Shown one piece after another: positions 44,690 through 63,874 of a stretch of DNA of 64,000 bases. The DNA lies in contig CAZRJH010000002.1 in assembly GCA_964600575.1 (NCBI GenBank), positions 124,298 through 188,297 of the forward strand. The letters are read 5' to 3'. Under the pieces are notes generated by a model. It did no database searches. It had not been told where the DNA came from and saw only the letters and a program-made list of their open reading frames with translations. Both the position numbers and the translations under genes were made by a program. Origin of the DNA: an uncultured Gammaproteobacteria bacterium. Its GTDB lineage: Bacteria; Patescibacteriota; Microgenomatia; UBA8517. Position 1 is the first letter of the stretch; every line of letters begins with the position of its first letter.

Positions 44690-44698
44690 TGTGGATAA
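44690..44698. promoter_or_regulatory. DnaA box (TGTGGATAA = TTATCCACA) in the rpmH-dnaA divergent region
   Basis: Exact match to the DnaA-box consensus, upstream of the dnaA start. Confidence 0.6.
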
Positions 44699-44786
44699 CT
44701 TATTAAAAAGTACTAGTACCGAATACGCTAAAAAATTATCTAAACCTCCCATAAACTGCTCAGGAATTGTGGCGTCTGAACCTAAT

Positions 44787-46449: not shown

Positions 46450-47562
46450 ATGAAACTAACAGTACTTCAAGAAGATTTTGCTAAGGCGGTGAACATAGCC
46501 TCAAGGTTCGCAAGCCCAAAGGCTCAACTTCCAATATTAGGAAACATTTTGATAAGTTCCGAAAAAACCAAAGTTAGAATAGTCTCAACAAATTTGGAGA
46601 TATCAGCTTCCGTGTCACTTGGTGCAAAAGTAGAAGAAGAGGGAGAGATAAGTATTCCTTCTAAAGTTTTAAACGATCTTGTTAGCAATCTTCCTAAAGA
46701 AACGATAGAAATATCTTCAAAAGAAGAGCAGCTTAAAGTTTCTAGCCCCGGTTTTTCATCTAATGTTTTGGGGATGTCTGCTGTTGATTTTCCCAAGGTA
46801 CCTGCGGGCATAGATAAAAGCAAAGCGGTACCATTACCTTCCAAAGAATTTTCGGACGCTTTATCGAAGGTTACATTCGCTGCATCAATGGACGAAACAA
46901 GACCTGTTTTGACAGGTGTTTTGTTTATAAAAGATAAAAAGAATTTGAACTTAGTAGCCACCGACGGCTTTAGACTGTCTAAAAAAACAGTAAATGTGGA
47001 AAATGATGACGAATTTAAATTAATACTCCCAAAGCTTATTCTTAACGAAGTGGCAAGAGATTCTAGTTCGGAAATGTTTTTTTCATTTGACCAAAACGAT
47101 AAACAAGCTGTATTTTCAAGCGGCGATATCACTTTGACATCAAGACTTCTGGAAGGGGAATACCCCGATTTTGACAAAATTATTCCTAAAAATTCATCTT
47201 TGAGCATATCTGTTGATAAGGAAGATTTTTTAAGAGCGGTTAAGTTAGCATCTGTTTTTGCAAGAGAAGCTTCTAATATTGTTAAGATTAAAGTTCTTAA
47301 AGAATCAATAAAAGTATCTGCTGAAAGCGGTAGTTCCGGGAGCCAAGAAATGAGTGTAGAGGCAAAGATTCAAATAAATGAAAAAGGGAACGAAAACATG
47401 GAGGTTAGTTTTAATTATAAGTTTTTGGAAGATTTTCTTAATTCGATCAAGAGCGATACTTTAACAATTGATTTGTCGGGTCCAAGCTCCGCGGGTGTTT
47501 TTAGAGAAGCCTCAGACTTAGAATATCTTCATTTAATAATGCCTGTGAGGGTTCAGAGCTGA
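46450..47562 (+). CDS. dnaN: DNA polymerase III beta sliding clamp
   Basis: The N-terminus is MKLTVLQEDFAKAVNIASRFAS. The three-domain length (370 aa) and the position after dnaA fit. Confidence 0.9.
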   Translation: MKLTVLQEDFAKAVNIASRFASPKAQLPILGNILISSEKTKVRIVSTNLEISASVSLGAKVEEEGEISIPSKVLNDLVSNLPKETIEISSKEEQLKVSSPGFSSNVLGMSAVDFPKVPAGIDKSKAVPLPSKEFSDALSKVTFAASMDETRPVLTGVLFIKDKKNLNLVATDGFRLSKKTVNVENDDEFKLILPKLILNEVARDSSSEMFFSFDQNDKQAVFSSGDITLTSRLLEGEYPDFDKIIPKNSSLSISVDKEDFLRAVKLASVFAREASNIVKIKVLKESIKVSAESGSSGSQEMSVEAKIQINEKGNENMEVSFNYKFLEDFLNSIKSDTLTIDLSGPSSAGVFREASDLEYLHLIMPVRVQS

Positions 47563-48173: not shown

Positions 48174-51020
48174 CTAGGGTGCGAACATTACATTCTTGGC
48201 AAATTGGTAATGTTTGGGATATTGACTGGCGTAATTTGAAATACAGCGTACCCAAGACGAAGTACCGACATAAAGTGCGTTACCCTCGGCCATGCTTTCG
48301 TATTCGTTTCCTACTGTATTGGAATATGAGCAGATTGCCCATTCTGATGTGGGAACTTGTTGTTTAAATTGACTAACTGTGCCTCCATTGATGTTTTGTA
48401 AATGGTGTGAGACCTCATGAGTAAGAATGTAAAGAGCATCTGACTGACTTCTAATTCCACATTGGTTGTAATTAATATCACAACTGCCATTATGGTCGTG
48501 TCTTGCGTAAATAGTTTGGTTACAAAGACCGTTGCCTATTGGATTTGGACTTTTTGTTGTGTAACACATATTAATCTCTCCTCCCGCACAAACCTTTTGA
48601 GCAAAATTTGGATAAGTTCCTGCCAGCGTGGCTGATGCAGAATCTAAATTTGCTTTAAAGTTAGCAGGCCAAGGTTCGTTGTTGTCTACTGTTTTAAAAC
48701 AACCCAGAGGACAGTCTCCAAAACAAACGGAGGCTGACCCAGTTTCCGAAACCTCACCTCCCTCGTTGGAGCTTGCAGTTACCGTAATAGAATCGCTAAC
48801 CAAAGAATCATTGAAACTAGAGTTGTAGTTCGAAGTAAAACTGAATGTAAACGGAGCGCCTGCTGTAATGGTTGCGGGTGCTGCAGGTATTTCTTCCAAA
48901 TTTTTGCAGTCGATTATGCCACCAGCTTTTTTAACGGCGCTGCAAGTATTTGTAAAGCTTATACCTGTAAGGTCATCCTTTTTGGCAGTAATGGTTATGG
49001 TGTAAGTAACAGAAGTGGGGGACGCAAGCTGCCCCGAAGGTTCAGCTTTTTTTTCTACAGACATATAGGGGTTGGTGTTATTTAGACTGGAAGAACTTCC
49101 TCCTGGTGGAATCAGGTAGGCACTATTGTTTATGATTACTAAAATTAAGGCTATCATTAGCGGAAAACCGATAAGAAAACTGATAACAGGTAATCCCAAC
49201 TGTGTCAGGAAAGTTGCCCAGGCTATACTAAAAACTGTAAATATAGAGGAGGCTGTTCCGGAAAAAGCCTGACCCACACCTGTTAGACCTCCTGTCATAA
49301 ATCCAAAAGCACCCAAACCAAGTCCTGCTCCAATTAAGGCGCCAGAAATACCACCTGAAATCAGCATACCTGCAACAGCACCTCCTAATGCTATTGTTGT
49401 TCCGTCTATTTTTTTTGCGTTTTTAGACATCCAGTCTAAAGCTTTTGGACCAATCACAGCAGAAACCAACCCAACAACAGCACCGATAATCAAACTAACA
49501 CCACCTGTTACCGGTGCAGCTGCTGCTGATGCGGCTGCTACGGTGGTTTCCGTAGCAGCAACAGTGCCAACAGTTGCTGCCGTTGCTGCAGTTGCAGTTG
49601 CCGCAGCACCTGCTCCTTCGGCTACTGCAGCTGTAACTCCCCCTACTACTGCTGTTCCTTCTGTCGCCAATACGCCACCGCCAATGGCTGCCGTTTCTGT
49701 TGATATCGCCGCCGCCTGAGTTGTTGCAAGAGCTCCTGATACAGCATCTGCTCCAACTTCTGTACTAATACTGGCTGCTGCTTGTGTTACGCCAAAATCC
49801 ATTCCAGTTATCTGACCAGCCCAGCCAAAAGTTGGTCCGTATCCAAATTCGACTGCCACTCTTCCAAAAAATGTGGTACCCTCCCATGCAATAGGCTCAC
49901 CTAGTCCGTAATAACTTAGGGCTGCTTGGATAACTGGTGCGTTGTAGGCTTCGGCAAGGGCTCCTGATTCAGGAATACTGCTTTCGATCCATGTACCAAC
50001 TTGCCTTAGAAAAACAGACTTAATCTCACCAGAACCAACTTGGGAAATCGTATCAAAAACAAAATCTTGTCGTTGAAGAAAATCAAGTTGCTTTCCTGTT
50101 ACGTTTCCTAAATCATATTCCTCGAATCCAAGCCTTGGTGTGCTGGATATTTCGATTGCCACTCTATCCAAATCTCTTGGACCTAGATAATTCGAGGCAA
50201 AATCTTCTCCAAAAGAAGAGCTAATGATTTTTCTATCGATTTGAAATTCAACAAGCTCAGTTGTAGAAACATTTATTGCGGAATCTCTGAAAGTCTGAAT
50301 ATCGTCATTTTCGATTGACTCCAGCAGGTTAGTATCGTTTGAAATTTTATTTATTGTTACGGCCTCTACAGCAAGTGAATTTCCTCTTAAGTTTTCAACT
50401 ACCCTAACAGCAGCCCTAGTAGAGAGTGCTTTAACCGCTTCTTCATTTGCACCCTGTGGAACATTTGCTTTAATCCTTTTTTCAATTTCAGAAGCCAACT
50501 CCCTTGTTAATTCTCTGGGGTTGTTTTGTGCAGAGGTTCTTAGTGTTTCTGATGTGGGTTGTTTATCTGCAGACAAGGGGTCCGCCTGAGGTGTTGAAAC
50601 TCTTCTGTAAATTTTTCTCCCTTGAGTTTTTTTATGTAATTCCTCTTGTCTTTTTATGGAAGCTTCGACTTGAACTTTTGCATTTTCAGCGCTTTTTCTG
50701 ATAGCTTCTTCCCTTTTAACTCTTTCTGCTTCCATTGCCTCCCTTTTTGCTTTGTCAGGGAGATTTTCTTCTGCTTTTGGTGTTTCTGATCCTATTTTTT
50801 CAAGTACAAATTGAGCATTCTTGACAGTCTCTTTGTCGCCAATTTTTATATCTACACCTGTTAAATTTTTAACTGTTTCTATAAAAGACTGTCTATCGCT
50901 CCATTTAAAATTTCCTGAAACGAATGGCTTATCGCTAACATACACGGCGTTTTCAGGGAAAAAATGATCAAACGCAAGCATTAACTCTTCAACATTTTTC
51001 TTTGTTAATAAATTTGCCAT
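48174..51020 (-). CDS. Mosaic 948-aa membrane protein: cytoplasmic coiled-coil/charged N-region, Ala/Gly/Thr-rich glycine-zipper TM block, and an extracellular Cys-rich domain with an HEXXH motif
   Basis: The first ~370 aa are a charged region (e.g. EAMEAERVKREEAIRKSAENAKVQVEASIKRQEE). An AGT-rich hydrophobic block spans ~aa 370-620. A beta-rich segment then leads to the C-terminal ALYILTHEVSHHL with many Cys. Confidence 0.6.
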   Translation of the reverse strand: MANLLTKKNVEELMLAFDHFFPENAVYVSDKPFVSGNFKWSDRQSFIETVKNLTGVDIKIGDKETVKNAQFVLEKIGSETPKAEENLPDKAKREAMEAERVKREEAIRKSAENAKVQVEASIKRQEELHKKTQGRKIYRRVSTPQADPLSADKQPTSETLRTSAQNNPRELTRELASEIEKRIKANVPQGANEEAVKALSTRAAVRVVENLRGNSLAVEAVTINKISNDTNLLESIENDDIQTFRDSAINVSTTELVEFQIDRKIISSSFGEDFASNYLGPRDLDRVAIEISSTPRLGFEEYDLGNVTGKQLDFLQRQDFVFDTISQVGSGEIKSVFLRQVGTWIESSIPESGALAEAYNAPVIQAALSYYGLGEPIAWEGTTFFGRVAVEFGYGPTFGWAGQITGMDFGVTQAAASISTEVGADAVSGALATTQAAAISTETAAIGGGVLATEGTAVVGGVTAAVAEGAGAAATATAATAATVGTVAATETTVAAASAAAAPVTGGVSLIIGAVVGLVSAVIGPKALDWMSKNAKKIDGTTIALGGAVAGMLISGGISGALIGAGLGLGAFGFMTGGLTGVGQAFSGTASSIFTVFSIAWATFLTQLGLPVISFLIGFPLMIALILVIINNSAYLIPPGGSSSSLNNTNPYMSVEKKAEPSGQLASPTSVTYTITITAKKDDLTGISFTNTCSAVKKAGGIIDCKNLEEIPAAPATITAGAPFTFSFTSNYNSSFNDSLVSDSITVTASSNEGGEVSETGSASVCFGDCPLGCFKTVDNNEPWPANFKANLDSASATLAGTYPNFAQKVCAGGEINMCYTTKSPNPIGNGLCNQTIYARHDHNGSCDINYNQCGIRSQSDALYILTHEVSHHLQNINGGTVSQFKQQVPTSEWAICSYSNTVGNEYESMAEGNALYVGTSSWVRCISNYASQYPKHYQFAKNVMFAP

Positions 51021-51022
51021 TT

Positions 51023-53029
51023 TTACTTAGTGTCGTATGCACGAGGGTTGAGCCTTGCCATTTCCTCGGGATTGGTTGTTATCAACCTGTTTTCTTCCTC
51101 GGAAGCAACCACTCTTATTGGGGCATGGTGTGGTCCTGCAAAAAATATACCTTCTCCTACATTTGCCGCCAAAAGAAGCTGCTTTTCTCCTTGTGATAAA
51201 TAGAAAACTTCGCCTATTCTATCGATTGCGGCAGGCGATTGTTTTAAAAGTACCTGCATAGCACTGTTGGTAACTATGGCTTTACCAATATCTTGCGCCA
51301 AAAAGTCTTCTACATCCTGTGTAATGGTTGTAAGACCTAAATAATATTTACGGGCTCTTTTGACAACGCTCCATAAAAACTGTGCAGTGTCCGGATATCT
51401 CATCATATGCCAAGCCTCATCAACCAAAAGGACTCTCTTTTTAATATCTTTTTTAACACGGGTCCAAATGTAATCAAGAATTATAAACATTGCAATTGGA
51501 CGTATGGCGTCTTGCATGTCTTTAACGGAGAATACTGTAAACGGATTGTCTAGATTAATGTTTGTTTGTTTATCAAAAATTCCCACAAAACTCCCGCGTA
51601 CAAACTTTTCGATACGGGCTGCAAGGTCGAGTGCGTCGGGAACCTCCATACCTATTAGTGTTTTATATAAATCTTCCATTAAAGGTGGCTCTTTTCCTTG
51701 AGTATCGGGGTCCATTGTTATTCCTTTGTTTTTGTATGTCATAACCAACGACCGGTCGAGTAGTGCATCTTGAGTAGGGGATATTTGTCCCATGATGACT
51801 TTCATTAGAGAGTGGAGTGAAAGTATTTTAAGACCAAGCTGGTTCTCTCCCTCTTCTCTTATCTGAGCAAGGTCAAATGGATTGATTTTTGCATCGGAAT
51901 TATAAGAAAAAGAGATGTATTCACCACCAACCGCTTGGGCTAGAGGTTTGTATTCGTTTTCGGGGTCTAAGATTATAGCCTCCGTTCCCGTCATCAAAGA
52001 ACGAAGTGCCTCGAGCTTAACAAAGAATGATTTACCTGCTCCTGAGGTTGCAAAGATAACCATATTGCTGTTTTGCAAACTAAATCTGTCAAAAATAATA
52101 AAGGATTCGTTTTGTGAGTTGATTCCGTATAAAACCCCCCGGTCGCTGGAAAGTTCAGTTGATGTTAAGGGGAATGTTGTAGCAACGGATGTTGTATCCA
52201 TGTTTCTGGTTATACTTAACCTATCCATTCCAAACGGAGCAGTTGAAAGGAATCCCGACTCTTGATCTAAAAGTGCGTGCTTAGAAACGATAAGCAGTGA
52301 ACCAAGTTGTGACTCGATTTGTTTTGTCACATGGTTAAGTTCATCTACTGAGTTTGCCGGTATGGTTATATAAAAGGAGAATTCATAAAATCTTTCTATT
52401 CCCTTAACAAGCTGCTCCTGCAAAGCTTTCGCGTCTTCCAATTTTGCGGAAGTAGAGGGGTCGACTATTTTTCCGCGTTCTATATCTGTCGAAATTTCTG
52501 CTTCCATTTCGGCGATTTTGCGCCTAAGGTCATCCAGAACCGATTTTCCGTCTACAGGATAAACATAAAAAGATATATCCAAACTGGAATCAAAGTTAAC
52601 GACGGGCTCCAGCCATCCGGGTGAAACAAATCTAGGATATCCTCCTACAAAAATTGTACGAAAATACACATCGTTGATTTTTATATAATCAAAATCTTCC
52701 TCGATTGTTTGAGATGAGATTACATCTAAAACATTGGCGCCTTGAGTAACTGCCAGTCCCGGATTTGTATATTTTTGCTTGGCTTGTTTGATTTCCGTCT
52801 GAGTTGGTATGTTTGGTGCTACAGGGCTCGCTTGTGGTGCCGGTTGTTGTGCTACGGCAGGCGGAGTCATAGGTTGAACGGGTTGGGGTGGATCTTGCTG
52901 TGCAACATTCTGAGGAACTGGGGCAATTTGTCCGGGTTGTGGATTTGGATTTAAAGGTGGTGGTGTTATCCCTAAAGCAGAGGGTGGAACAGGGTTTTGT
53001 GGTTTAGAAAAAGGTAATTTTATATTCAT
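51023..53029 (-). CDS. VirB4/TrbE/CagE-family T4SS ATPase (central and C-terminal part) with a Pro/Gln-rich N-terminal extension
   Basis: YFRTIFVGGYPRFVSPGWLEPVVN matches the VirB4 'YRRHLSLKSLPAE...' segment. Walker A is ATSGAGKSFFVKL and Walker B is VLLVDEAWHMM. Confidence 0.8.
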   Translation of the reverse strand: MNIKLPFSKPQNPVPPSALGITPPPLNPNPQPGQIAPVPQNVAQQDPPQPVQPMTPPAVAQQPAPQASPVAPNIPTQTEIKQAKQKYTNPGLAVTQGANVLDVISSQTIEEDFDYIKINDVYFRTIFVGGYPRFVSPGWLEPVVNFDSSLDISFYVYPVDGKSVLDDLRRKIAEMEAEISTDIERGKIVDPSTSAKLEDAKALQEQLVKGIERFYEFSFYITIPANSVDELNHVTKQIESQLGSLLIVSKHALLDQESGFLSTAPFGMDRLSITRNMDTTSVATTFPLTSTELSSDRGVLYGINSQNESFIIFDRFSLQNSNMVIFATSGAGKSFFVKLEALRSLMTGTEAIILDPENEYKPLAQAVGGEYISFSYNSDAKINPFDLAQIREEGENQLGLKILSLHSLMKVIMGQISPTQDALLDRSLVMTYKNKGITMDPDTQGKEPPLMEDLYKTLIGMEVPDALDLAARIEKFVRGSFVGIFDKQTNINLDNPFTVFSVKDMQDAIRPIAMFIILDYIWTRVKKDIKKRVLLVDEAWHMMRYPDTAQFLWSVVKRARKYYLGLTTITQDVEDFLAQDIGKAIVTNSAMQVLLKQSPAAIDRIGEVFYLSQGEKQLLLAANVGEGIFFAGPHHAPIRVVASEEENRLITTNPEEMARLNPRAYDTK

Positions 53030-53038
53030 TTTTAGATT

Positions 53039-53746
53039 TTATTTTTTATCCATTACGACTTCTGGCTCTTTTTTAACCGCGGGTCTTTCGGGATTGTAAA
53101 TTGTATAAAAAAGGTTAACCAGCTCCGGAGTGGTTAGTTGTCTGAATTTTATACCAAGTCTACCCGCCTGTCTTACTAAATGATCGCGTCTGGGGTACAA
53201 AGTGATTTTTGCCTTTTTAATTACAAAAGATTTTGCATAAGGCAAAGGACCGGTTCTTCTTGTAAGTGATTGAACAGATTTGCCTACACCCAGTTCTAAG
53301 GGAGAAAGATACAAAACCACAAAAAACCTTTTACCTAAAACATTTTTCTTTTTGACGGACTCGGAAATAAAGCCTCTGTAGTTTGTCATAAGCCTTATTA
53401 AGAGGGGGTGTGTAAGTTTTTTGGCTTGTTCATCAAGAAAATTAAGATAAGAGCTTATATCCTTTCTGGAGGTTCTAACAATAATTTGTACGGAAAAAGA
53501 TAAAGAGTTAATCATTGCGGCATATGCTGCAATGACTGCCTCCTGCTCTTTTTCGCTTAAGAGTCCAAAGTTTAAAGAGGTTGATTCCATAACAAGAGCT
53601 GCGCCCCCGTCTTTGTAAATCAAAATGTCGTTTGTAATGTCTGCAATTGGTAAATGATCTTGGGTTGTAGCCGTTATTGGTTTGTCGGGAATAGAAATAA
53701 AAGGAACTTTTGGAAAATTTGATAGGTCCGGTGGTTTTATTGCCAT
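53039..53746 (-). CDS. VirB4 N-terminal domain, encoded as a separate ORF in frame with the downstream ATPase ORF
   Basis: DHLPIADITNDILIYKDGGAALVMESTSLNFGLLSEKEQEAVIAAYAAMINSL aligns with the VirB4 N-terminus (YLPY..HLSDHIVLLEDGS..AFELEEIE..NTLLRNI). The stop TAA at 53039-53041 is in frame with ATG 53029. Confidence 0.6.
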   Translation of the reverse strand: MAIKPPDLSNFPKVPFISIPDKPITATTQDHLPIADITNDILIYKDGGAALVMESTSLNFGLLSEKEQEAVIAAYAAMINSLSFSVQIIVRTSRKDISSYLNFLDEQAKKLTHPLLIRLMTNYRGFISESVKKKNVLGKRFFVVLYLSPLELGVGKSVQSLTRRTGPLPYAKSFVIKKAKITLYPRRDHLVRQAGRLGIKFRQLTTPELVNLFYTIYNPERPAVKKEPEVVMDKK

Positions 53747-53748
53747 AG

Positions 53749-54891
53749 TTAGTTAACTCCGACTGCCATAGGGTTTTGTACGACTGCGGGTGTCTGTTGT
53801 GGTGGAGCCTGTGCTACCGCCGAATGTTTACCTTGAATCAGTATTGGCGGTATAAGGTTTCCTGTTGTTTCAAAAGTATAAGGAATAAAGTCGAATCCGT
53901 CTTTTTCGGTAATGACATCATATCTACCAATCTCCAAGGGTGTTACGGTTATAAAATGCCCTGCTTTGTTGCTTCTTAATGCCCTTATCGGTCTTCCTGC
54001 GGAATCTCTTATTTCCATAATAGCTCCCTCGATTATTTTTCTGTTTTCATCCACAACCTGGCCGACAACAACATTTGGTATTGTCGGCGGGCTGGGAGGT
54101 GCCGCGTCAATTGAAAACAAAGCTTGTTTTGCCGAAACAATTTCTTCACCAGCAATAGTGGGTGCAACCTGGTGTGTTGTTATCTCCGGAGCAGATATAA
54201 GCGGGTCCGCTTTTCTTTCTTCTACAACCAAATGCGGAATATTAGACACGACTTTGATTGGCGCAGTTTGTGGTATCTGGAGTTCCTTTTGCGGTTCGAC
54301 GGGCTTAGGTGCTACCGCGACATTTTCTTTTGGCATAGTAAGCGGTACAACGGGGGGCTGTGGAACAGTGGGGGGTGGGGAAACGGGTGCGGCAGGAACT
54401 CCAGTAGAAACAGGGCTGACAACACCTGTAAACATACCTGTTAGAGTTGCCAAAAATCCTTGCTCTGCCATGTCCATTTTTGCGGAAGAGCCTGATTTTT
54501 GATTTGCAACGGATAAATAGTCGTTAAGTGCTTTTTCCTGAGGTGCCGCAGTTTCTACAGAAACAGTGCTTGCAGGTTCGTCCAAAAAAAACTTCGTGGC
54601 AACTTTTGTTTCTTGCCAATAGAATTCGGTTGGGGCGTATATCGCCCTAAAAAAAGCAAAAATCCACTTTTCCAAAGGCCGTTCTTCTAAGGGTAAAAAT
54701 GCCAAACAAACACCAAGGATTGCCGAAACGATTACAAACGGCCATTTAATTATTCCTATGAGTGGTGCGGAATAAAAAATTAGGGCGACCAAAAATCCAC
54801 CCGCAAGTTGAAAAAATTGCTTAAGGGTCATTTCTCCAACCAAACGAAATTGATAGGAGCTTATTTGTTGTGGTATTGCGTGTTGTTGCAT
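53749..54891 (-). CDS. PrgI/VirB3-like T4SS membrane protein fused to a Pro-rich linker and a C-terminal transthyretin/CarboxypepD_reg-like beta-sandwich domain
   Basis: The N-terminus is FRLVGEMTLKQFFQLAGGFLVALIFYSAPLIGIIKWPFVIVSAILGVCLAF (PrgI-like, two TM). The C-terminus is VVGQVVDENRKIIEGAIMEIRDSAGRPI...GRYDV. Confidence 0.5.
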   Translation of the reverse strand: MQQHAIPQQISSYQFRLVGEMTLKQFFQLAGGFLVALIFYSAPLIGIIKWPFVIVSAILGVCLAFLPLEERPLEKWIFAFFRAIYAPTEFYWQETKVATKFFLDEPASTVSVETAAPQEKALNDYLSVANQKSGSSAKMDMAEQGFLATLTGMFTGVVSPVSTGVPAAPVSPPPTVPQPPVVPLTMPKENVAVAPKPVEPQKELQIPQTAPIKVVSNIPHLVVEERKADPLISAPEITTHQVAPTIAGEEIVSAKQALFSIDAAPPSPPTIPNVVVGQVVDENRKIIEGAIMEIRDSAGRPIRALRSNKAGHFITVTPLEIGRYDVITEKDGFDFIPYTFETTGNLIPPILIQGKHSAVAQAPPQQTPAVVQNPMAVGVN

Positions 54892-55441: not shown

Positions 55442-58156
55442 ATGGCAGGTGGACCCGAACAGGGCGGAATGGACCCCAAACTAGAAGAAGCTCTCAAAAT
55501 GGAGATGTCTTTGCGTAACGAACAATCTAGGGGCATGTATTTGTCCGATTTGGACAGATTTAAAAAGAGTCTTACCGAACTAGATATGGCCAAAACAGAG
55601 GAGGAGAGAGAAATGGCCAGGGAGCGTGCCTACGAGCATTTTGACGAGATCAAAAAACAAGAGCTGGGTCACCTTGAATTTATAACAGACAAACATATGA
55701 GTTTTGAGTTTGCGTTCCCTTACGACTCCAGACAAGGCGCTGTCTGGTTTATGGCAATGCGAAGGGATTTAGAGGATACGCTTGCCCTAGACGAAGACCA
55801 TGGAGGGTTCAAAGAAGATAGTGAGGCTAGAAAGTGGGTAGAAAACTTATATGACGCTGTTGTTTGGGGTGATGGAAATTATGGTGTACAGGAAGGCTTG
55901 AATACAATTAATTATTACTTCGGAGGATTCGACGCAATGGCTGCAGGGCTTCAGTCAATGAAACTTAGAATCACATCCACAAAGATGGCGGATGCAAACT
56001 CCAGAGATGTTAGAGGTGCTGGTTCAAATGAAAAAAGTGCAGAAGGTCTAATGGTAGCGAAAGGAAAGGTTTTGGGTAGTAAAAAGCTTGAAGTTCCTCA
56101 TACATACTTCGATAAAAAACTAAAGAAGAAGGTTACCGAAACAAGACAGGTCGATTGGTTAGTTAAACAAAAAGAGGCGGTTGAAAATATTAGGGAAATT
56201 GGCGTAAGCGGACAAGACGAGTTTTATTATTGGAGAAATCTTGTTGCAGCAGTTGCTCAGTATGATTATGCACAGCCCAACAAGGATGGCTTAATGCGTG
56301 CCAATAAGGTTAGACAAGGACTGGAGGTTGATTTTGTGGTTCAGCTTTTTGGCAAAAAAGAAGCTGACGGAAGGACTCCAAAGATGGTTGCTAGTGAAAA
56401 AGGTGTGGCTCCTGACTCAATCTTAAGTTTCTTTACAATGGCTGACACAAAGAAAAACAGACGTGAATACAGGCAGCTTATGATGGCTTTAATGGAATGC
56501 AAAGCTATGGATAAGTTAGCTGCGTGCAACGAAGAAACTGATCCCAACAAACCTCCGCGAGTAAACTTGGCCCAAATGCAAGTTTTACTTAACGAGGTTA
56601 AGGATGCTAAAGACAGGATAGCGAAAAGAGAACAAAAGAAGGCTCCTTCTACAGAAGATAGAATCAGATCTGTGGTAGTTAAAAATGGTTTGATTTTTGA
56701 TATTGCTTCGGGCGGCTCCGGTCCTATGGCTTGGCAGTTTGAGTATAAAATGACCAGGAACAAAAGGGGTAAGGATGGCAAGGTAATCCCTGGAACCGGC
56801 AGGATGGTAAGAAGAGTAGATTTTGGAGGCATCAATCAAGCAGGAGATTGGTACACACCTGAGTTTTGGCTACTTCATAACCTTCTCTACGACAAAACAA
56901 GCAGACTCAGGTCCAAAAAAATGCTTGCGACTCCTGATAGGTATCGAAAGGCGGTTCTGCAGGAAAAAAGTCCTTTCGAAAAACCTTTATATTCTCTAGA
57001 AGAAGCTAAAAAAATTGATCCTTGGCAATATAACGAAGTACAAAAAATTGTTGCGGAAGATGATGAGGAGATATTGGTTAGTGGTGACGACGACATGTTT
57101 GATCTTTTTATGGCAGGAGGCCTTAACGAAAAACAAAAGGCCGACATGCGAAAGGCGGGAAGACTCATGAAAGCCGGTGATTGGAGGGAGCAAAATAAAT
57201 TTAGAATAGATCCTGTTATAAGAGAGGCTCTCAAAGACGCAGTTTGGTTCCAGGAAATACCATATCCGATTGGAACCAATTCTGACGGCTCGCCCGTCTT
57301 CCCGCTTTTTGCTACATTTATCCCTCCCAGGTTTAAGATGAGCTTTTTTGACCATGTTAAAACGAGGGATGAAAAAGGAAGGCAGGTTACAATGCAAGAT
57401 AGGCTAAGAAACGCAGACTTAAAGCTTTCTGAAGTTGACTATGAGAACGACCTAAAAGAACATCAGTGGGATAGGTGGCTTGTGAACATGAACATGGGTG
57501 AACGTTTGTTGAGGTTTGCTGCAGAACCGGGTGATCCAAGAGCAGAAGAAGCTATCCTTGGAGGGACCGGAACACTCAAGGAGGGAATCAAAAGAACGGG
57601 ACTTCACAACAGAGACTCGTTTTATGCGTACGAAGTAGAGGTTCCTGATGCAAGTGCTCCCGGAGGTAAACGTAAAGAAACCCGTTATGCACCGGGGTCG
57701 TTTTTTGAATTAGTTTTAGTCGGCCAAATGAATATGTTGCATGCAGTTAAAGGTAATCCAAGAGCGAGAGATGCATCCGACGCAATTCCAACCGACCTTA
57801 TCAGCCCTGCAATAGAGGACGATGAGTTCTCCAACAGGTGGGAGAACATTGTTATGCCTGAGTATATTAATGCGGCTAAGTATTTGACTCCCGACACAGG
57901 CGAAGATGAGGGAACTCCTGAGTTTTACAACGAAACCTTGGCAATATTAATGGCTGTGACGGGCAATTCACTTTTTAGAATGGCACTTGAAGGGGGATCT
58001 AACTCTGTACACGACAAGATGGTTGTCGTTAATCAACTAAGAACAATGAAAGTTGACCGAAAGAAGCGTTTGGTTAAGAGAGGAGCGGTTAACTTTACAG
58101 AGAACAATCCCAATACTCAGCTCTCTGCAAAAGTTGCTTACTCTAGTAGAAAATAA
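55442..58156 (+). CDS. 904-aa soluble protein of unknown function, encoded antisense to the T4SS-like operons
   Basis: Long clean ORF with no TM, P-loop or relaxase His-triad seen by eye. Rich in Arg/Asp/Glu/Met/Trp. A promoter-like TTGACT-N17-TATAGG and a TATAAT lie upstream. Confidence 0.7.
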   Translation: MAGGPEQGGMDPKLEEALKMEMSLRNEQSRGMYLSDLDRFKKSLTELDMAKTEEEREMARERAYEHFDEIKKQELGHLEFITDKHMSFEFAFPYDSRQGAVWFMAMRRDLEDTLALDEDHGGFKEDSEARKWVENLYDAVVWGDGNYGVQEGLNTINYYFGGFDAMAAGLQSMKLRITSTKMADANSRDVRGAGSNEKSAEGLMVAKGKVLGSKKLEVPHTYFDKKLKKKVTETRQVDWLVKQKEAVENIREIGVSGQDEFYYWRNLVAAVAQYDYAQPNKDGLMRANKVRQGLEVDFVVQLFGKKEADGRTPKMVASEKGVAPDSILSFFTMADTKKNRREYRQLMMALMECKAMDKLAACNEETDPNKPPRVNLAQMQVLLNEVKDAKDRIAKREQKKAPSTEDRIRSVVVKNGLIFDIASGGSGPMAWQFEYKMTRNKRGKDGKVIPGTGRMVRRVDFGGINQAGDWYTPEFWLLHNLLYDKTSRLRSKKMLATPDRYRKAVLQEKSPFEKPLYSLEEAKKIDPWQYNEVQKIVAEDDEEILVSGDDDMFDLFMAGGLNEKQKADMRKAGRLMKAGDWREQNKFRIDPVIREALKDAVWFQEIPYPIGTNSDGSPVFPLFATFIPPRFKMSFFDHVKTRDEKGRQVTMQDRLRNADLKLSEVDYENDLKEHQWDRWLVNMNMGERLLRFAAEPGDPRAEEAILGGTGTLKEGIKRTGLHNRDSFYAYEVEVPDASAPGGKRKETRYAPGSFFELVLVGQMNMLHAVKGNPRARDASDAIPTDLISPAIEDDEFSNRWENIVMPEYINAAKYLTPDTGEDEGTPEFYNETLAILMAVTGNSLFRMALEGGSNSVHDKMVVVNQLRTMKVDRKKRLVKRGAVNFTENNPNTQLSAKVAYSSRK

Positions 58157-58205: not shown

Positions 58206-60020
58206 TTAGTGTCTTTCTGTCCCACTTTTAACGTTCTTGACGACACTGTCAACTCTATCGCCAACATACCTGTTCTGTCGTAGTTTTTCAACAGATCTCT
58301 GCAAGAAGTCGAGCTTGCTCATGTCAGTTCTATTCGCTTCCCAGTCTCTCATATACTTAGCCAATCCTTCTTGGCTGTTAAGTTTTCTAAGCATTTCCAC
58401 TCTATCACGAGCACCCGATGCGCCATATGCCCAACCGACAGGTGCCAAAGCTTCGCCTATCGCAGTTCCATATGCAAACGGCCTGCCGCTCATAAGACCT
58501 TGCAGGACCTCTGTTGCTTTTGGAATTAATGTAAATAGTACAAAGCTTACACCGAGCATTAAAAGCCCTGTTCCGCCGCCTGTAGAGGCGCTGGCACTCA
58601 AAAGGGGAGGCCATGCAGAGTTGTATACAAAGAATCCTCCAACATTCGCGATTGTGGATTGTCCAAATAAAAAGCCTAATATTCCTGTTCCAAGATTACT
58701 ACCAAGCCCCTCCCAGGCCAAAACAACTCCTTGTTCCAAAAAGACATACGAGAAAAATATTAAAACACTTGTGAGAACAAAAACCCCCAAGTTAGTAGCA
58801 TAACTTCTTAACCAAGCCCCGAATCCGAAACTGGGGAACATGACGCCGGCGACAATTTGAACAGGTGCAAATATAGTTAAAAGAATTATGTTGGTAAAGG
58901 CTTTTAATAGTCCGAACATCGTCTTAAACAATTGAACAATGATTACGATGACTATAACTATAGCCAAAACTATAACTATAATTCCGGTAATAGGGGTTAA
59001 GATTGCAAACAAGGGTGCCAAAATAGTACCAACAACTCCAATGACGGCGGCTCCTAGCACCCCAACTGTTAAGAAGAGAGTAATAATGAGTGATATTGGG
59101 AACAAGACAAGATAAATTAATAAAAGTCCGAGTAGTCCTAACTCGACACCACCACCACCTCCACCAACTCTACCTGCGGTGATGAATTCGAACACAGTGG
59201 AAGCAGAAACGCTTCCACCAAATGGAATAAAGCCTTTTCCTAACAGTGCAAACAAACCATAAAGAACGTACATCAAATCGATCATAAAACCCGCAATAGC
59301 ATAGGAGAAAGTTACTAAAATCAAGGCACCGATTAGCTTGGGAAGTGCTGTTTGCACAGAGATAACAACTTGTGGCGAAATTTTGACTCTAAACATTATC
59401 ATAAATGCAAAAGCGATCGCTGCTATAACAAAAAGACCGAAAGCTAAATCTCTTGATGTTTGCCACATTGCTTGAACAGGTTGTAATGCGTTGAATCCAA
59501 AACCTACAACTTGTGCATGCGCTTCGGGAACTATGCTAAAGTTGTTTACTTTCTGTCGAACATAGTTAACTCCAGACATTGGCCTGTTTTTGTCAAAAAT
59601 TAAACTCAAAAGTGGCTTTTCGGGAGCCTTTGGCCTATTTGCCATTTCCTGAAGTTGTTCCGGTGTTGCCGAAAGTAAGCTGGCACAAGCATTAACATTG
59701 GCTGAGTTTTTAAACAGACAGCTTAAAAGTTTTTGATTGCTGGTTTGATTAACCAAAAAAGAAAGAAGTCCGTAAACAACCCATTGAACCTGGGCTGCGG
59801 TATATCTTTCTCCAAAAATTTCACTTTGGTTGCTGTCGTCGTAAACTTTGGAATACCAATCCTGGAAGCTGGAGTTATACCAAGTGCCAGCTGGGGCAGG
59901 GGTGGGGGCTGCAGCTTTTGCCGCCATAAAAGGCGCAAAAGAAAATAGCATTACCCAAGCTGCCATCAAAGAAATTAAGAACTTTTTTAATAACATGTGA
60001 GATTTAAGAAAGAAAGGCAT
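58206..60020 (-). CDS. VirB6/TrbL-like polytopic T4SS channel protein (putative)
   Basis: 604 aa. A signal peptide and a ~170-aa external domain are followed by ≥6 TM helices with Gly-rich loops (GGGGGVELG) and a cytoplasmic C-tail. The assignment rests on topology and context. Confidence 0.45.
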   Translation of the reverse strand: MPFFLKSHMLLKKFLISLMAAWVMLFSFAPFMAAKAAAPTPAPAGTWYNSSFQDWYSKVYDDSNQSEIFGERYTAAQVQWVVYGLLSFLVNQTSNQKLLSCLFKNSANVNACASLLSATPEQLQEMANRPKAPEKPLLSLIFDKNRPMSGVNYVRQKVNNFSIVPEAHAQVVGFGFNALQPVQAMWQTSRDLAFGLFVIAAIAFAFMIMFRVKISPQVVISVQTALPKLIGALILVTFSYAIAGFMIDLMYVLYGLFALLGKGFIPFGGSVSASTVFEFITAGRVGGGGGGVELGLLGLLLIYLVLFPISLIITLFLTVGVLGAAVIGVVGTILAPLFAILTPITGIIVIVLAIVIVIVIIVQLFKTMFGLLKAFTNIILLTIFAPVQIVAGVMFPSFGFGAWLRSYATNLGVFVLTSVLIFFSYVFLEQGVVLAWEGLGSNLGTGILGFLFGQSTIANVGGFFVYNSAWPPLLSASASTGGGTGLLMLGVSFVLFTLIPKATEVLQGLMSGRPFAYGTAIGEALAPVGWAYGASGARDRVEMLRKLNSQEGLAKYMRDWEANRTDMSKLDFLQRSVEKLRQNRYVGDRVDSVVKNVKSGTERH

Positions 60021-60036
60021 TAAAAGTATTATATAG

Positions 60037-60083
60037 CAAACTCAGAATAAAATGGAATTTTTTCAGCTTGTATTCTGAGTTTG
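60037..60083. repeat. 13-bp perfect inverted repeat (CAAACTCAGAATA...TATTCTGAGTTTG) between the Cys-rich secreted-protein gene and the VirB6-like gene
   Basis: Read directly from the sequence. The loop is 21 nt. On the minus strand a TATAAT lies just downstream. Confidence 0.55.
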
Positions 60084-60169
60084 ATATATAGAAACTCTGT
60101 GCTTGTCAAACAAAATTTTCTGAAATTTTGTATTAAAGTGACTATATCAACTTGTGTTTGTATTTAAAA

Positions 60170-62839
60170 TCAGTTTCCGTGAGCAACATCCCAGACACAA
60201 GCATTGTGACTCTGGCTTGAATAACGGTTGCTGATTGTTTCGCAGGTATCTCCAACAGGGCAGGCGGCAGCTAGTCCTCCCAAAGCACATCCATTTTCCA
60301 CAGTCATACACATACTTGTATAACCGCTTTCGTAGACTTTTATGGCAGACTCGTATTGTTCATCCGTCCAGCTACAAGAGGAGGGTACGGGCGCACTTAG
60401 TTTTATTCCAAAACAAGTTGGGGGAAGGCCGCCGCCGCCATCTGCACTGTCGTGAAGGTTATAGGCCGCCGCGAATATTGCATCCAACAAATTACATTGA
60501 CTAAATTCTTTTCTGGCAGGATCGATTTTTTGCAGGTCGGCTTTTATTTTGGGAACTGTTCTTTCGAAAACGGTTCCGTTAAAGCCCATAAAATGATCAT
60601 CTCCGGTCTCATTACATCCAGGAATCTTGGTGCATGTTGCCCAATTTTTAACATTTTGATCCGTCCATTCGTATCTTCCTGGGTTAAAAAGACCTTCTCC
60701 AAACATTTGAGCCACTAATAAATTTGGCGGTACCTTGTATGTTTGTGCAGCCGCAGAAATAATATCTTCCAGTGACTTGGGTAAGTTTCCAACTCTGGAG
60801 CTTACCCCTCCTAATTGACAAGAACCCGAGGCTTTGGGGAGTTCCGGAAGCTCTCCGCAAACAACATTTGTGCAGGATTGTCCGTTAACAGGCTGAGCTC
60901 CGCCGTAACCTTTTGGCCTTAAAGCTGTTTGGATTCCGTTTAAAAAATATTCTAAAACTCCCCCGTAATGCGGGTAGAAAACTTTTGCTTCTAAAGCATC
61001 CGTCTTGTTTGCAAACGATCCCATGCGGCTGTCATCGGGAAGTATCACCTGTGTAAGCCTTATTCCCTGACTACTTGGATCGGTAATTTTATAAGTTGCT
61101 TTGGATTCGGCAGGAATATCTGCAATACAAGACACAGGAGCATTCGCACCTGTTTTTGGGTACATTCTTCTAAATATTGCGTCAGGACCTGCTACAGTGT
61201 TATTCCATATTTCGTCCGCAAATGGGGTTTTGCTTACAGTAGGGATTGTTGCGTAAACTTCGGATTCACAAGTTGCAACCATTTCACAAACCGTTTGACC
61301 ATATGTTGGGCTTGTGGGATTGTTGTCTTCTCGACATTCTTCGTGTGGTTCACTACACTGAATTTCGCCGACATCGTATTGGACATCAACTTCTATCCAT
61401 TTTTTGGGAGACTCAAAGTTAACATCGTCCCCGGGGTTGCTTCTGGAATTTAATATTTTACAAGGGGCTCTGTTAACTTCGACATCGCTCAAGCTTGAAG
61501 CCGCGGCGTTTGAAGAACCACCAGCCGGTGCCATTGGAACGAAGGTCTTTTTTAACAAGCTGGTAAGTTCGTTGTTTTCGTCTGCATGGGGAAACCACTG
61601 ACGAAATGCCGGTTTGATAATTTGGTAGTCCGATTCTACTATTTCGGCTTTGGCTGCACTCACATGTGCAAAAAGAACCATATGTCCTCCTGGTATGTCT
61701 CTATTGTTGGCAAGGGGGATGTAGGGGAATAGGTCAGCATATTTATTGGGAACGAGCAAATTTTCGAAACAGGCAAGTCTATCGATAATCGGAAGAATAA
61801 AACAGGTTTGACCCCTCCATTCGTAATATGCTTTTTGATAATCTACATTTCTTGCGAACGGTTTTCCTGTGCCATCATCCCAAGGAAGCGGCGGTCGTCT
61901 AAGATTCCAGTGGTTACCGATTGAAGCTTCGATTGCACCCGTAGAAACAAAAGGAAAGAGAACATTGTAAGCATTTACTGCGGTCCTGATGGTGGCGTTT
62001 GATAAAACATTAAATATGGATAAATTACCGTTCCAGTCTTTGAGTCTGTAAACATCGCCGCTTGCCCCGGCACCTCCGCCTTTGTAACACTCCTTAGGGG
62101 TTGTTTTACCGACATTAAACAGGTCTACAATCCAGCCCAAAAGGCCACCTCCGCCTTCACCTGCACAAACTACAATTTGATTGTGGTTCATTTTGTCGGG
62201 CGAAGATTCGCCTGTTTCGTCGTCTGTTGCGCTTGTCGATTCGTCGGGGGATTCTATTGTTTTTACTCTTGCAGCGTCTTGAATTACAGAAGGTAGGAGT
62301 CTCCTAAGAGGCCCGGAATAGTTAACTTGTTGGGAGATGTCGCTTTTTGGGTATTCCGCTTTGTCGCTGACACCGTTAAGGTACCAAGCAACATAGTCGT
62401 TAACTTTTGTTCCGTCGTCCATTGTGCCAGTGCCATTAACGCTATTAGAAGTTAACTCTGTGTTTCCCATGATAGGGAGTTCCGCATCCAACATTTCTAC
62501 AGCAATCTTCTTTTCGTAGTGAGTTATTGTTGGGGTGCATGTTGGATCGCCTTTGTAAGGACATTTGACTGTGTTTAGATATATAACTACAGCGTTTCCG
62601 CACCAATAAGTTTTTGGAGCATCGCCACAAGGAGAGGCTTGGTATGGGCGACCACTACTGTATTCGGGATTCTTTTCGTCTTCACAGGGAATGTTTCCTG
62701 ATCTTGGAATTGCATCGGCCGCATTGAGCGTGTTTATTTGGAGCGTTAAAAAAACAAAAGCAACACCAAGAACTAAAGTTGTTAACGAATAAAGCAAACT
62801 AATAAGTTTTTCCGGTTTTTGGAGTTTTTTGTTCTGCAT
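60170..62839 (-). CDS. Secreted Cys-rich 889-aa protein with a C-terminal lysozyme-like/lytic-transglycosylase-like region (VirB1/PrgK-like candidate)
   Basis: N-terminal signal/TM. More than 40 Cys. LLVAQMFGEGLFNPGRYEW resembles the SLT motif LLAAIAYQESRFNPNA, with Gly in place of the catalytic-adjacent Ser. Confidence 0.55.
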   Translation of the reverse strand: MQNKKLQKPEKLISLLYSLTTLVLGVAFVFLTLQINTLNAADAIPRSGNIPCEDEKNPEYSSGRPYQASPCGDAPKTYWCGNAVVIYLNTVKCPYKGDPTCTPTITHYEKKIAVEMLDAELPIMGNTELTSNSVNGTGTMDDGTKVNDYVAWYLNGVSDKAEYPKSDISQQVNYSGPLRRLLPSVIQDAARVKTIESPDESTSATDDETGESSPDKMNHNQIVVCAGEGGGGLLGWIVDLFNVGKTTPKECYKGGGAGASGDVYRLKDWNGNLSIFNVLSNATIRTAVNAYNVLFPFVSTGAIEASIGNHWNLRRPPLPWDDGTGKPFARNVDYQKAYYEWRGQTCFILPIIDRLACFENLLVPNKYADLFPYIPLANNRDIPGGHMVLFAHVSAAKAEIVESDYQIIKPAFRQWFPHADENNELTSLLKKTFVPMAPAGGSSNAAASSLSDVEVNRAPCKILNSRSNPGDDVNFESPKKWIEVDVQYDVGEIQCSEPHEECREDNNPTSPTYGQTVCEMVATCESEVYATIPTVSKTPFADEIWNNTVAGPDAIFRRMYPKTGANAPVSCIADIPAESKATYKITDPSSQGIRLTQVILPDDSRMGSFANKTDALEAKVFYPHYGGVLEYFLNGIQTALRPKGYGGAQPVNGQSCTNVVCGELPELPKASGSCQLGGVSSRVGNLPKSLEDIISAAAQTYKVPPNLLVAQMFGEGLFNPGRYEWTDQNVKNWATCTKIPGCNETGDDHFMGFNGTVFERTVPKIKADLQKIDPARKEFSQCNLLDAIFAAAYNLHDSADGGGGLPPTCFGIKLSAPVPSSCSWTDEQYESAIKVYESGYTSMCMTVENGCALGGLAAACPVGDTCETISNRYSSQSHNACVWDVAHGN

Positions 62840-62852
62840 CTGGCATCTTGTT

Positions 62853-63137
62853 TTATCTGAGCATCAAGTTGAATTGTGTAAGATTGCGGACACCTGTTAT
62901 GTTTCCAATGATAACTAAAACAAGGAAGGAGAGGAGTATGACTATAAGGCCTCCGATTGCGTAAGTCATTGTTTTTTGTGCCCCTTCGATTGCCTTTGGA
63001 TCTCCTCCGGAGGTGATATATTTGATTCCTCCCATAACCAGAAAAACAAATAGGATTATTCCTGCAAAAGTAAGAAAGCTTCTAACTAGACTCTCAAATA
63101 TTTTACTGAGGTCCGATATGGTGGCTATTCCATTCAT
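62853..63137 (-). CDS. VirB2/TrbC-like T4SS pilin paralog 1
   Basis: 94 aa with two hydrophobic helices flanking GGIKYITSGGDPKAIEGAQKT. Confidence 0.55.
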   Translation of the reverse strand: MNGIATISDLSKIFESLVRSFLTFAGIILFVFLVMGGIKYITSGGDPKAIEGAQKTMTYAIGGLIVILLSFLVLVIIGNITGVRNLTQFNLMLR

Positions 63138-63189
63138 AACAACAATTTTATTACAAACGAAACTTTAAAGCTATATCTACAAAAAGAGA

Positions 63190-63519
63190 TTATACAGAGG
63201 GGATAACCAAGGAGAAGATATCGATGTGGAAGAATGTGTTGATTAAAGCAACAATTGCCCAGGCTGCGAAAACTATAACCAAGCCTACTAAAGCTGCTGT
63301 AATTTGATTTCTAGCAGACTCCGTTTGAGCTTTGTCTCCGCCTGAAGCAATCCATTTGATACCTCCAATGACCAAAATAAAGAAGAAGACGATAGCTGCT
63401 ACAACTACTGTGAGTCTGATTAATGCCGAAATAAGACCAGGAATAGTAAGTTTGGCCAAAGGAGCAAACTGGGTTCCTTCACCCGGCTGCAAATTAATTT
63501 GTGCTAAAAGGTTGTTCAT
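63190..63519 (-). CDS. VirB2/TrbC-like T4SS pilin paralog 2
   Basis: 109 aa with the motif IGGIKWIASGGDKAQTESARNQITAALVGLVIVFAAWAIVALI. Confidence 0.55.
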   Translation of the reverse strand: MNNLLAQINLQPGEGTQFAPLAKLTIPGLISALIRLTVVVAAIVFFFILVIGGIKWIASGGDKAQTESARNQITAALVGLVIVFAAWAIVALINTFFHIDIFSLVIPSV

Positions 63520-63526
63520 ATGTATA

Positions 63527-63874
63527 TTATCGAATCCCTAGTGCCGCAATGTCAAGAGTCAGAATGTGTATATGGAAGAACGACTCTATAACTTTAATTA
63601 ATGCGAAAGCTGCAAAAGCCAAAACCATGCCTACCAAAGCGTTTGTAATCCTTGCTCGGGCGGTTTCAAGTGCTTGTTTGTCTCCGTTAGACGAAATCCA
63701 TTGGATTGATCCCAAGATGAGCATGAAGAAAAAGATAACTGAGCCGATTAAAAAGGCCATGCCAATAGCGGCCGGAACGGCTTTTTGAAAATAACTCTCA
63801 CCTGTGTTGTTTTCTAGTTGTCCAAGTGCAGGATTGCCGATTACCCCCGATGCTGCTGCTATTAAGTTGTTCAT
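63527..63874 (-). CDS. VirB2/TrbC-like T4SS pilin paralog 3
   Basis: 115 aa with the motif ILGSIQWISSNGDKQALETARARITNALVGMVLAFAAFALIKVI. Confidence 0.55.
   Translation of the reverse strand: MNNLIAAASGVIGNPALGQLENNTGESYFQKAVPAAIGMAFLIGSVIFFFMLILGSIQWISSNGDKQALETARARITNALVGMVLAFAAFALIKVIESFFHIHILTLDIAALGIR

Follow-up and report, generated by a model that had tools for sequence, protein, structure and literature searches.

What opens the cell wall for Patescibacteria's type IV secretion system (T4SS)? Few systems have been shown to be indispensable to the epibiotic life of these bacteria; T4SS and pilin genes belong to them, and the parts list of the apparatus is incomplete. Wall opening is the task of VirB1 in diderm T4SSs and of PrgK or TraG in monoderm T4SSs. 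According to a 2025 survey with MPF-specific hidden Markov models (TrsG, CD419, MPF_T VirB1), VirB1 homologues are rare in Patescibacteria and are not associated with virB4 in most classes, and the same survey left open whether other glycosidases fill the VirB1 role (PMC12102498). The question arises anew at a locus within 64,000 nucleotides of contig CAZRJH010000002.1 (positions 124,298 to 188,297 of the forward strand, hereafter the window), which encodes a protein of 889 amino acids (aa) that an initial annotation of the DNA had described as a secreted, Cys-rich, VirB1-like candidate. We propose, with roughly even confidence, that this protein is a Sec-exported, disulfide-stabilised, wall-cutting accessory enzyme of an origin-proximal T4SS/VirB2-pilus locus of Microgenomatia (Patescibacteria). 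The proposal draws on direct observation of the open reading frame, its signal-peptide features, the predicted fold, the alignment of one Glu residue with known catalytic residues, conserved synteny and a rule of even cysteine numbers. The gene and the parts of its product are the following:

60170..62839, minus strand: complete open reading frame of 889 aa with its stop codon, ATG start
62711..62839, minus strand: Sec-type signal peptide, residues 1 to ~40-43, with a basic n-region (K4, K5, K8, K11) and a hydrophobic core (12-33)
60890..62710, minus strand: conserved N-terminal core, residues ~44-650, mixed alpha/beta and multi-domain, with beta-sandwich modules
60785..60889, minus strand: Cys-containing linker, residues ~651-685 (C656, C661, C674), which joins the core to the lysozyme-like domain
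60173..60784, minus strand: predicted lysozyme-like domain of the glycoside hydrolase family 23 (GH23)/soluble lytic transglycosylase (SLT) type, residues ~686-889, modelled with the linker as residues 660-889
60665..60721, minus strand: motif LLVAQMFGEGLFNPGRYEW, residues 707-725, at the end of the helix bearing the predicted catalytic Glu
60695..60697, minus strand: codon of Glu715, the predicted general-acid residue, invariant and aligned with known catalytic Glu residues

The open reading frame was confirmed on the minus strand with its ATG start, and the gene exists beyond chance, as it has 216 database homologues, the closest with E = 0. In the mechanism that we favor, the signal peptide would be removed at about residue 40-43, and the mature protein of ~850 aa would fold outside the membrane with the help of ~14 disulfide bonds. 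The family-specific core (~44-650) would dock the protein to the pilus/T4SS apparatus, while the GH23-type domain (~686-889), with Glu715 acting as the general acid, would cleave the beta-1,4 bond between N-acetylmuramic acid (MurNAc) and N-acetylglucosamine (GlcNAc) in peptidoglycan, by the reaction of a lytic transglycosylase or that of a muramidase. The result would be a local gap in the wall, which we infer to be the producer's own, through which the pilus/T4SS could pass.

The last quarter of the protein is considered first. When residues 660-889 (230 aa) were modelled alone, the predicted structure had an alpha-helical, lysozyme-like fold with a predicted local distance difference test score (pLDDT) of 93.5 and a predicted template modelling score (pTM) of 0.92; the full-length model, with a mean pLDDT of 83, returned the same structural matches. 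The initial annotation had staked its proposal on a lysozyme-like fold in the C-terminal region, and the model has that fold. The large majority of the structural neighbours are peptidoglycan enzymes. The best match was the interbacterial effector Tse3, which aligned over 161-182 residues as opposed to ~125 for housekeeping lytic transglycosylases, and the lower-scoring matches included the machine-associated lysins T7 gp16, EtgA of the type III secretion system and a Tn916 Orf17-like hydrolase. As modelled, the C-terminal domain belongs structurally to the lysozyme-like/GH23 superfamily, where it represents a divergent branch that is absent from domain libraries. The family is invisible to the current libraries, and its lysozyme-like domain can be recognised only through structure prediction and profile-profile comparison.

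In the model, Glu715 directly follows helix 705-714, at the C-terminal end of the motif-I helix and within the SLT-like peptide that the initial annotation had placed there correctly. The residue was invariant in 48 of 48 full-length sequences and again in a 32-sequence alignment of the domain (where it is E56). That alignment also showed conservation of W733, N783, D786 and W824; Trp, Asn and Asp are typical of sugar grooves. We used hhalign to compare a 67-sequence C-terminal profile with four E. coli SLT domains, those of MltC, Slt70, MltD and MltE as encoded in NC_000913.3, and obtained a probability of 78.5% (E 1.7e-5) for an alignment that places E715 on E217 of MltC and pairs DIISAAAQTYKVPPNLLVAQMFGEGLFNP with the MltC segment around that residue. 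A profile of the whole family, run against 177,635 sequences of the PDB, gave only four matches, two to MltC and two to goose-type lysozyme. All four are GH23 proteins and all align at the catalytic Glu, with weak E-values of 0.3-0.7. A phmmer search of the PDB sequences with the query, and an hmmsearch of the same sequences with C-terminal profile A2, yielded only noise. The catalytic Glu recognised in the initial annotation is kept, given its invariance and its alignment with E217 of MltC and with the catalytic Glu of goose lysozyme. The Gly in place of Ser at the next position had been taken as a sign of degeneracy. G716 is indeed present; GES, HEG and IES all occur in close relatives, and the exchange is, to judge from these sequences, ordinary variation inside the family. 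Within the domain type of the query, the residues around the Glu read GEG in 63 members, HEG in 7, IES in 8 and GES in at least 2 (P0046 and P0048). Profile comparison linked the query type to the HEG type at 99.8% and, at 98.5%, to the IES type; the Glu residues coincide in each case, and the IES-type relatives match MltC (E 0.029; hhalign 95.3%) through the GLMQ motif (AGVAQI).

The claim that the protein is secreted is supported by Sec-type signal-peptide features at the N-terminus. The N-terminal hydrophobic segment, of 19-22 residues, is the only one in the protein. It leads to a putative cleavage region, TLNA/ADA/IP, within which we infer the position of cleavage; A-x-A motifs are conserved at the matching place in homologues (VSA-ANA, VYA-ENA, ARA-ANA). 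The number of cysteines had been over-counted as more than 40. The count is 28, which nevertheless amounts to 3.1% of the residues versus 0.6% in the other 37 open reading frames of more than 200 aa in the window, so that the enrichment, about five times the local average, is real. With the signal region removed, the number of Cys residues was even in 114 of 117 full-length members (range 18 to 44; binomial p = 3e-30). Moreover, particular cysteines are gained and lost in pairs: C571 of the core co-occurs perfectly with C656 of the linker (r = 1.0), and high correlations were also found for C502-C518 (r = 0.86), C844-C860 (r = 0.82) and C736-C809 (r = 0.81). The even counts and the paired gain and loss constitute strong indirect evidence that essentially all of the cysteines are engaged in disulfides, with ~14 bonds predicted in the 889-aa protein, a pattern that would fit an extracytoplasmic location. 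No DsbA-like oxidoreductase was found within the 64-kb window, where the CxxC-bearing open reading frames are those of two aminoacyl-tRNA synthetases and short overlapping ones that are probably spurious.

The 216 homologues came from a search of 5.8 billion proteins. All of them are annotated as "hypothetical" and all are from metagenome-assembled genomes (MAGs) of Woesebacteria, Microgenomates or Patescibacteria; only two outliers among them carried a Pfam domain in the precomputed annotation. When 1.84 billion cluster representatives were searched with a profile, the family grew to 811 members, of which 490 scored at E <= 1e-30. The family is uncharacterised and appears only in Microgenomatia/Woesebacteria. 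For synteny, we used 57 species-level loci from one-genome-per-species data, and all of the informative titles of these loci name Woesebacteria, Microgenomates, Microgenomatus or Patescibacteria. Some 20 contigs besides those of L009, L013 and L014 bear labels from outside the candidate phyla radiation (many "uncultured Gammaproteobacteria bacterium", one "Alphaproteobacteria", one "Ignavibacteria"), as do those three, yet have Woesebacteria-like synteny; such labels look like placeholders or the outcome of mis-binning.

Does the protein belong to the secretion apparatus? Its gene is encoded inside a T4SS gene cluster that adjoins dnaA and dnaN:

62853..63874, minus strand: three VirB2-like pilin genes (94, 109 and 115 aa), PF18895, two of them above the Pfam cut-off
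58206..60020, minus strand: polytopic membrane protein of 604 aa with ~8-10 hydrophobic segments, directly downstream of the 889-aa gene, without a Pfam match
48174..54891, minus strand: core T4SS genes, in the same locus as the 889-aa gene
53749-54891, minus strand: PrgI/VirB3-like protein, 380 aa, with a PrgI match
53039-53746, minus strand: TraC-like protein, 235 aa, in a gene order shared with relatives
51023-53029, minus strand: VirB4-type ATPase (TraG P-loop/AAA_10)
48174-51020, minus strand: membrane protein of 948 aa in the PrgK position, directly after VirB4
44691-46151, plus strand: dnaA, 486 aa, adjoining the T4SS locus
46450-47562, plus strand: dnaN, 370 aa, adjoining the T4SS locus

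Read along the minus strand, the order is pilins, 889-aa gene, 604-aa polytopic gene, an oppositely oriented 904-aa gene, a 91-aa open reading frame, the PrgI/VirB3-like, TraC-like and VirB4-type genes, the 948-aa gene and a 197-aa open reading frame. The protein had been said to lie downstream of the pilins and upstream of a VirB6-like gene. The first statement is correct: three PF18895 genes of the T4SS-pilin-like kind lie directly upstream, separated from the 889-aa gene by only 13 nucleotides. Their match to Mbov_0395 pilin-like proteins is weak, and the array, which has ~8 genes in relatives, continues past the window end. The second statement stands insofar as a polytopic membrane protein lies directly downstream in a conserved position, but the identification with VirB6 is unsupported by sequence (no Pfam match); VirB6 homologues are scarce in Microgenomatia (PMC12102498). 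Because dnaA and dnaN immediately adjoin it, the T4SS locus is chromosomal and origin-proximal, in agreement with the placement reported for Microgenomatia. It likewise matches the T4SSs of Patescibacteria in general, which are origin-proximal and MPF_FATA-like, with VirB2-like pilin arrays and usually without a relaxase (PMC12102498).

The same arrangement recurs in the relatives, where the order is pilins, family gene, polytopic protein and then PrgI, TraC-like and VirB4 genes. Of the 57 loci, 49 have pilins, typically eight, directly upstream of the family gene, 48 have a downstream gene homologous to that of the 604-aa polytopic protein, and 37 have VirB4 no more than 10 kb away; the loci that lack the pilins, the polytopic gene or VirB4 are mostly on short contigs. 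Two loci, L059 and L064, from Woesebacteria UBA5941 and a related MAG, differ in that the family gene instead follows an operon of PrgI, TraC-like, VirB4, 948-like and 190-aa genes. In L059 (9125-12400), a longer family member of 1091 aa ends an operon of PrgI, TraC-like and VirB4 genes followed by genes of 735 and 190 aa. In this arrangement, the surrounding 10 kb showed no pilin array, and since the family gene here follows the VirB4 operon, the family is tied to the T4SS itself, beyond the pilin array. In three other loci, a divergent SpoIID-domain protein of 561-606 aa is encoded upstream of the pilin array (L001 5321-7141, L002 5432-7159 and L003 5315-7000), after which come a ~220-aa gene, a DUF5657 gene and one of ~620-660 aa. 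SpoIID is a family of glycan-strand-cleaving enzymes. The equivalent region of the present locus falls past the window end.

Most of the protein lies outside the lysozyme-like domain, in the core that precedes it. Its conservation exceeds that of the C-terminal domain, and it holds 15 of the 28 cysteines along with the majority of the family's invariant residues, among them R64-P65-Y66, H219, P316-P317, the cluster Y334-K336-Y338-W341-G343, D381, H418, N468-G470 and R641-P642. No relative of the region ~44-650 was detectable, and its structural matches, to Gram-positive adhesin and pilin Ig-like domains, are weak. The model has lower pLDDT at 643-660, in the region of the linker. Four core residues, H219, D381, H418 and E421, are invariant or near-invariant and could bind a metal or make up a second active site.

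In contrast to the core, which is constant, the C-terminal part of the family is exchanged. BLAST clustering of the region after residue 646 separated 121 members into five groups, and at least six C-terminal sequence types, with the SLT_3 group counted, are found on the one core. Two types are demonstrably lysozyme-like: the GEG/HEG/IES cluster, to which the query belongs, and the SLT_3 type. The Pfam SLT_3 model matches P0096 at E 1.4e-11 and, in all, seven of 50 diverse members, and sub-threshold PF01464 matches were obtained for P0115, P0112 and P0092. These matches indicate that the core recurrently bears a muralytic module. The remaining types (t2, t3, t4 and "ETG"), to which no lysozyme family could be assigned by sequence, keep a helix-Glu motif (invariant W-L-N-E-S, ALNENGG, HFEEGD or LETG), and the invariant helix-Glu-(Ser/Gly) pattern suggests that they, too, may be lysozyme-like. 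In rare cases a member also carries an NAGPA phosphodiester glycosidase or a GDSL esterase; no further Pfam family was found. The domain also occurs without the core: in L066 (8001-9365), a secreted protein of 454 aa has a HEG-type lysozyme-like domain behind a different N-terminal part. Its gene lies between an 861-aa gene and the pilin array, with SpoIID and DUF5657 genes nearby. We considered whether the 861-aa gene is a split-off copy of the core and rejected this, as there is no similarity.

How does the protein compare with the wall-opening components of known systems? Like VirB1 of Agrobacterium and its relatives, it carries a signal for Sec export, has a predicted lysozyme-like domain, is encoded in a T4SS cluster beside VirB2-type pilins, and would be a local wall opener, as VirB1 is presumed to be. 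Unlike VirB1, which is a protein of ~240 aa with a canonical PF01464 SLT domain, it has 889 aa and no PF01464 match, and the lysozyme-like domain is C-terminal, behind the large novel core. Of the VirB1-like label given in the initial annotation, the lysozyme-like last quarter and the conserved T4SS context stand, but membership in VirB1 by sequence does not, and the ~600-aa core is left unaccounted for. The central idea of that annotation is in this sense partly supported: it holds for the last quarter of the protein and is incomplete for the remainder. The resemblance to PrgK of pCF10 and TraG of pIP501 is of another kind. The T4SS is of the MPF_FATA-like type in all three cases, and includes PrgI as well as a TraG P-loop type of VirB4; the proteins are multi-domain with a lysozyme-like module, and PrgK, at 871 aa, is similar in size. 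However, hhalign of the lysozyme-like region of PrgK against the family gave a probability of 0.1%, that is, no detectable similarity, and the second peptidase domain of PrgK/TraG (CHAP, NlpC/P60 or LytM) was searched for and rejected, with no match in the query or in 98 scanned relatives. Furthermore, PrgK directly follows VirB4, whereas the gene described here has the pilins on one side and the polytopic protein on the other, and the slot after VirB4 is occupied by the unrelated 948-aa protein; only L059 and L064 have the family gene downstream of the VirB4 operon. By analogy, then, we propose the protein as a counterpart that may work like VirB1 or PrgK yet falls outside those families by sequence. 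Compared with the family-1 lytic transglycosylases and other GH23 proteins (MltC, MltE, Slt70 and goose-type lysozyme), the domain is larger (~205-230 aa), has 13 cysteines and extra loops, carries Gly after the Glu, lacks a Pfam SLT match and is fused behind a 600-aa core. To Tse3 (PA3484), the muramidase effector of the type VI secretion system of Pseudomonas aeruginosa, the likeness is in fold only: sequence identity is 14%, and Tse3 is delivered by the type VI system and paired with the immunity protein Tsi3, whereas the protein studied here has a Sec signal peptide and a T4SS/pilin locus, in which its gene is flanked by those of pilins and the polytopic protein and none was recognised as an immunity gene.

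A number of results weigh against the proposal of a wall-cutting enzyme that serves its own secretion system, and several of them bear on whether the domain is an enzyme at all. Searches of Pfam (E up to 10), NCBIfam and PHROGs with the full-length protein and with the C-terminus gave no match. No SLT, lysozyme, CHAP or NlpC/P60 model (PF01464, PF13406, PF18896 and similar) scored above threshold for the query, so that the library search suggested in the initial annotation (PF01464, CHAP, NlpC/P60) came back empty. The hhalign match of the query type to the SLT domains spans only ~29 columns around motif I; the query reads G-E715-G716, without the Ser or Thr that follows the Glu in the E-S motif; and neither the GLMQ nor the AYNxG motif is recognisable by sequence, with FMGF (751-754) and VYESG (835-839) being possible counterparts by eye only. 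It could be argued from the missing Ser, from the absence of a Pfam SLT match at any threshold, from an alignment that covers only the first helix-Glu motif, and from the better conservation of the core that the domain is inactive and simply anchors the core to peptidoglycan, as a wall-binding or structural component. We consider this quite unlikely, because the Glu is invariant in the 48 sequences and across the C-terminal subtypes while its surroundings vary, a pattern that points to catalysis, because the residues of sugar-groove type (W733, N783, D786, W824) are kept, and because relatives have canonical E-S motifs and bona fide SLT_3 domains. The atypical catalytic motif could, alternatively, reflect a glycanase whose substrate is not peptidoglycan but, for example, a chitin-like or other beta-1,4-GlcNAc polymer, a capsule or a sheath, and whose position in the locus is unrelated to T4SS assembly. 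This seems very unlikely to us: the structural neighbours are largely peptidoglycan enzymes, the synteny with pilin and VirB4 genes is near-universal, and the relatives that Pfam recognises carry SLT and SLT_3.

A different objection concerns whose wall is cut. The same enzyme and locus could breach the wall of the host or prey cell of an epibiont, with the core mounting the protein on or near the pilus/T4SS and the exchangeable module matched to the chemistry of the host wall, in the manner of phage tail-tip lysins or Tse3. Sequence-unrelated C-terminal types are swapped while the core stays constant, a pattern that resembles adjustment to a variable external target more than upkeep of the self wall, and the rare members with a glycosidase or an esterase speak for a host target too. 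The longer alignment with Tse3 than with the housekeeping enzymes and the weak matches of the core to adhesin and pilin Ig-like domains point in this direction as well. Pilin arrays are hypervariable in this group, and in Saccharimonadia epibiotic growth requires the genes of the T4SS and the pilins (PMC12102498). Finally, the SpoIID protein upstream of the pilins in relatives, together with one weak CHAP match after VirB4 (L002), could already supply the remodelling of the self wall. On the other side, there are no known hosts for Woesebacteria, no immunity or inhibitor gene was recognised beside the 889-aa gene, the signal peptide points to Sec export and not to delivery by the T4SS, and self-remodelling hydrolases of T4SSs are also highly variable between systems. 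On balance, we regard a host-directed wall breacher as possible but unlikely. The main function could also sit in the unexplained, best-conserved core rather than in the domain behind it. In the most far-reaching form of the host-directed reading, which we hold to be somewhat more doubtful, the ~600-aa core is an unknown structural component of the T4SS/VirB2 pilus that presents an exchangeable wall-cutting "warhead" to the host cell. If that were true, the family would be the epibionts' device for piercing the host wall, and the C-terminal type would report the wall chemistry of the host.

The accessory enzyme of the T4SS, as we prefer to see this protein, would make the family a concrete candidate for the VirB1 role in Microgenomatia, for which the survey asked about other glycosidases (PMC12102498). 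What is new is a T4SS-associated candidate wall hydrolase of novel architecture, with a previously unrecognised branch of GH23 and a core of ~600 aa that has no known relative. Glu715, as the predicted catalytic residue, is open to testing, and the core merits structural work. The combination of a constant core and swapped muralytic ends could help to predict which walls uncultured Woesebacteria target and, perhaps, which hosts they use. The ~14 predicted extracellular disulfides, in turn, raise the question of the oxidative folding system in these reduced genomes.

Several neighbouring genes have features of their own. The PrgI/VirB3-like protein (380 aa) is unusually long. Its C-terminal part weakly matches beta-sandwich domains of the prealbumin-like kind (CarboxypepD_reg, SpaA), and these matches suggest that a VirB3-like membrane anchor bears an extracellular extension. 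The 948-aa protein has 12 Cys residues and 4-5 central hydrophobic segments, without a Pfam match. Only 5 homologues were found among the 5.8 billion proteins, and it is thus very fast-evolving; its counterpart by position in L002 is the gene with the weak CHAP match. The possibility that the 889-aa and 948-aa proteins are homologues was rejected, as they have no similarity. The 904-aa gene (55442-58156, plus strand), inside the T4SS locus between the polytopic and PrgI-like genes, encodes a protein with neither a transmembrane segment nor a Pfam match. Relatives have a gene of 780-1065 aa in the same place and orientation, with recognisable similarity to the 904-aa gene in only 10 of the 57 loci.

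The gap between the 889-aa and polytopic genes (60021-60169, minus strand; 149 nucleotides) contains a 10-bp perfect inverted repeat, ACTCAGAATA ... TATTCTGAGT, as well as promoter-like hexamers, namely TTGACA and a TATAAT-like sequence just before the ATG. The polytopic gene may, on this sequence, have its own regulation; promoter and terminator scans gave only background-level signal. Farther off, the window encodes GroEL, two aminoacyl-tRNA synthetases and an AddA-like helicase, along with two envelope-related proteins, one of 586 aa with VanW and PG_binding_4 domains (28584-30344, plus strand) and a DUF4012 protein of 890 aa (38085-40757, minus strand).

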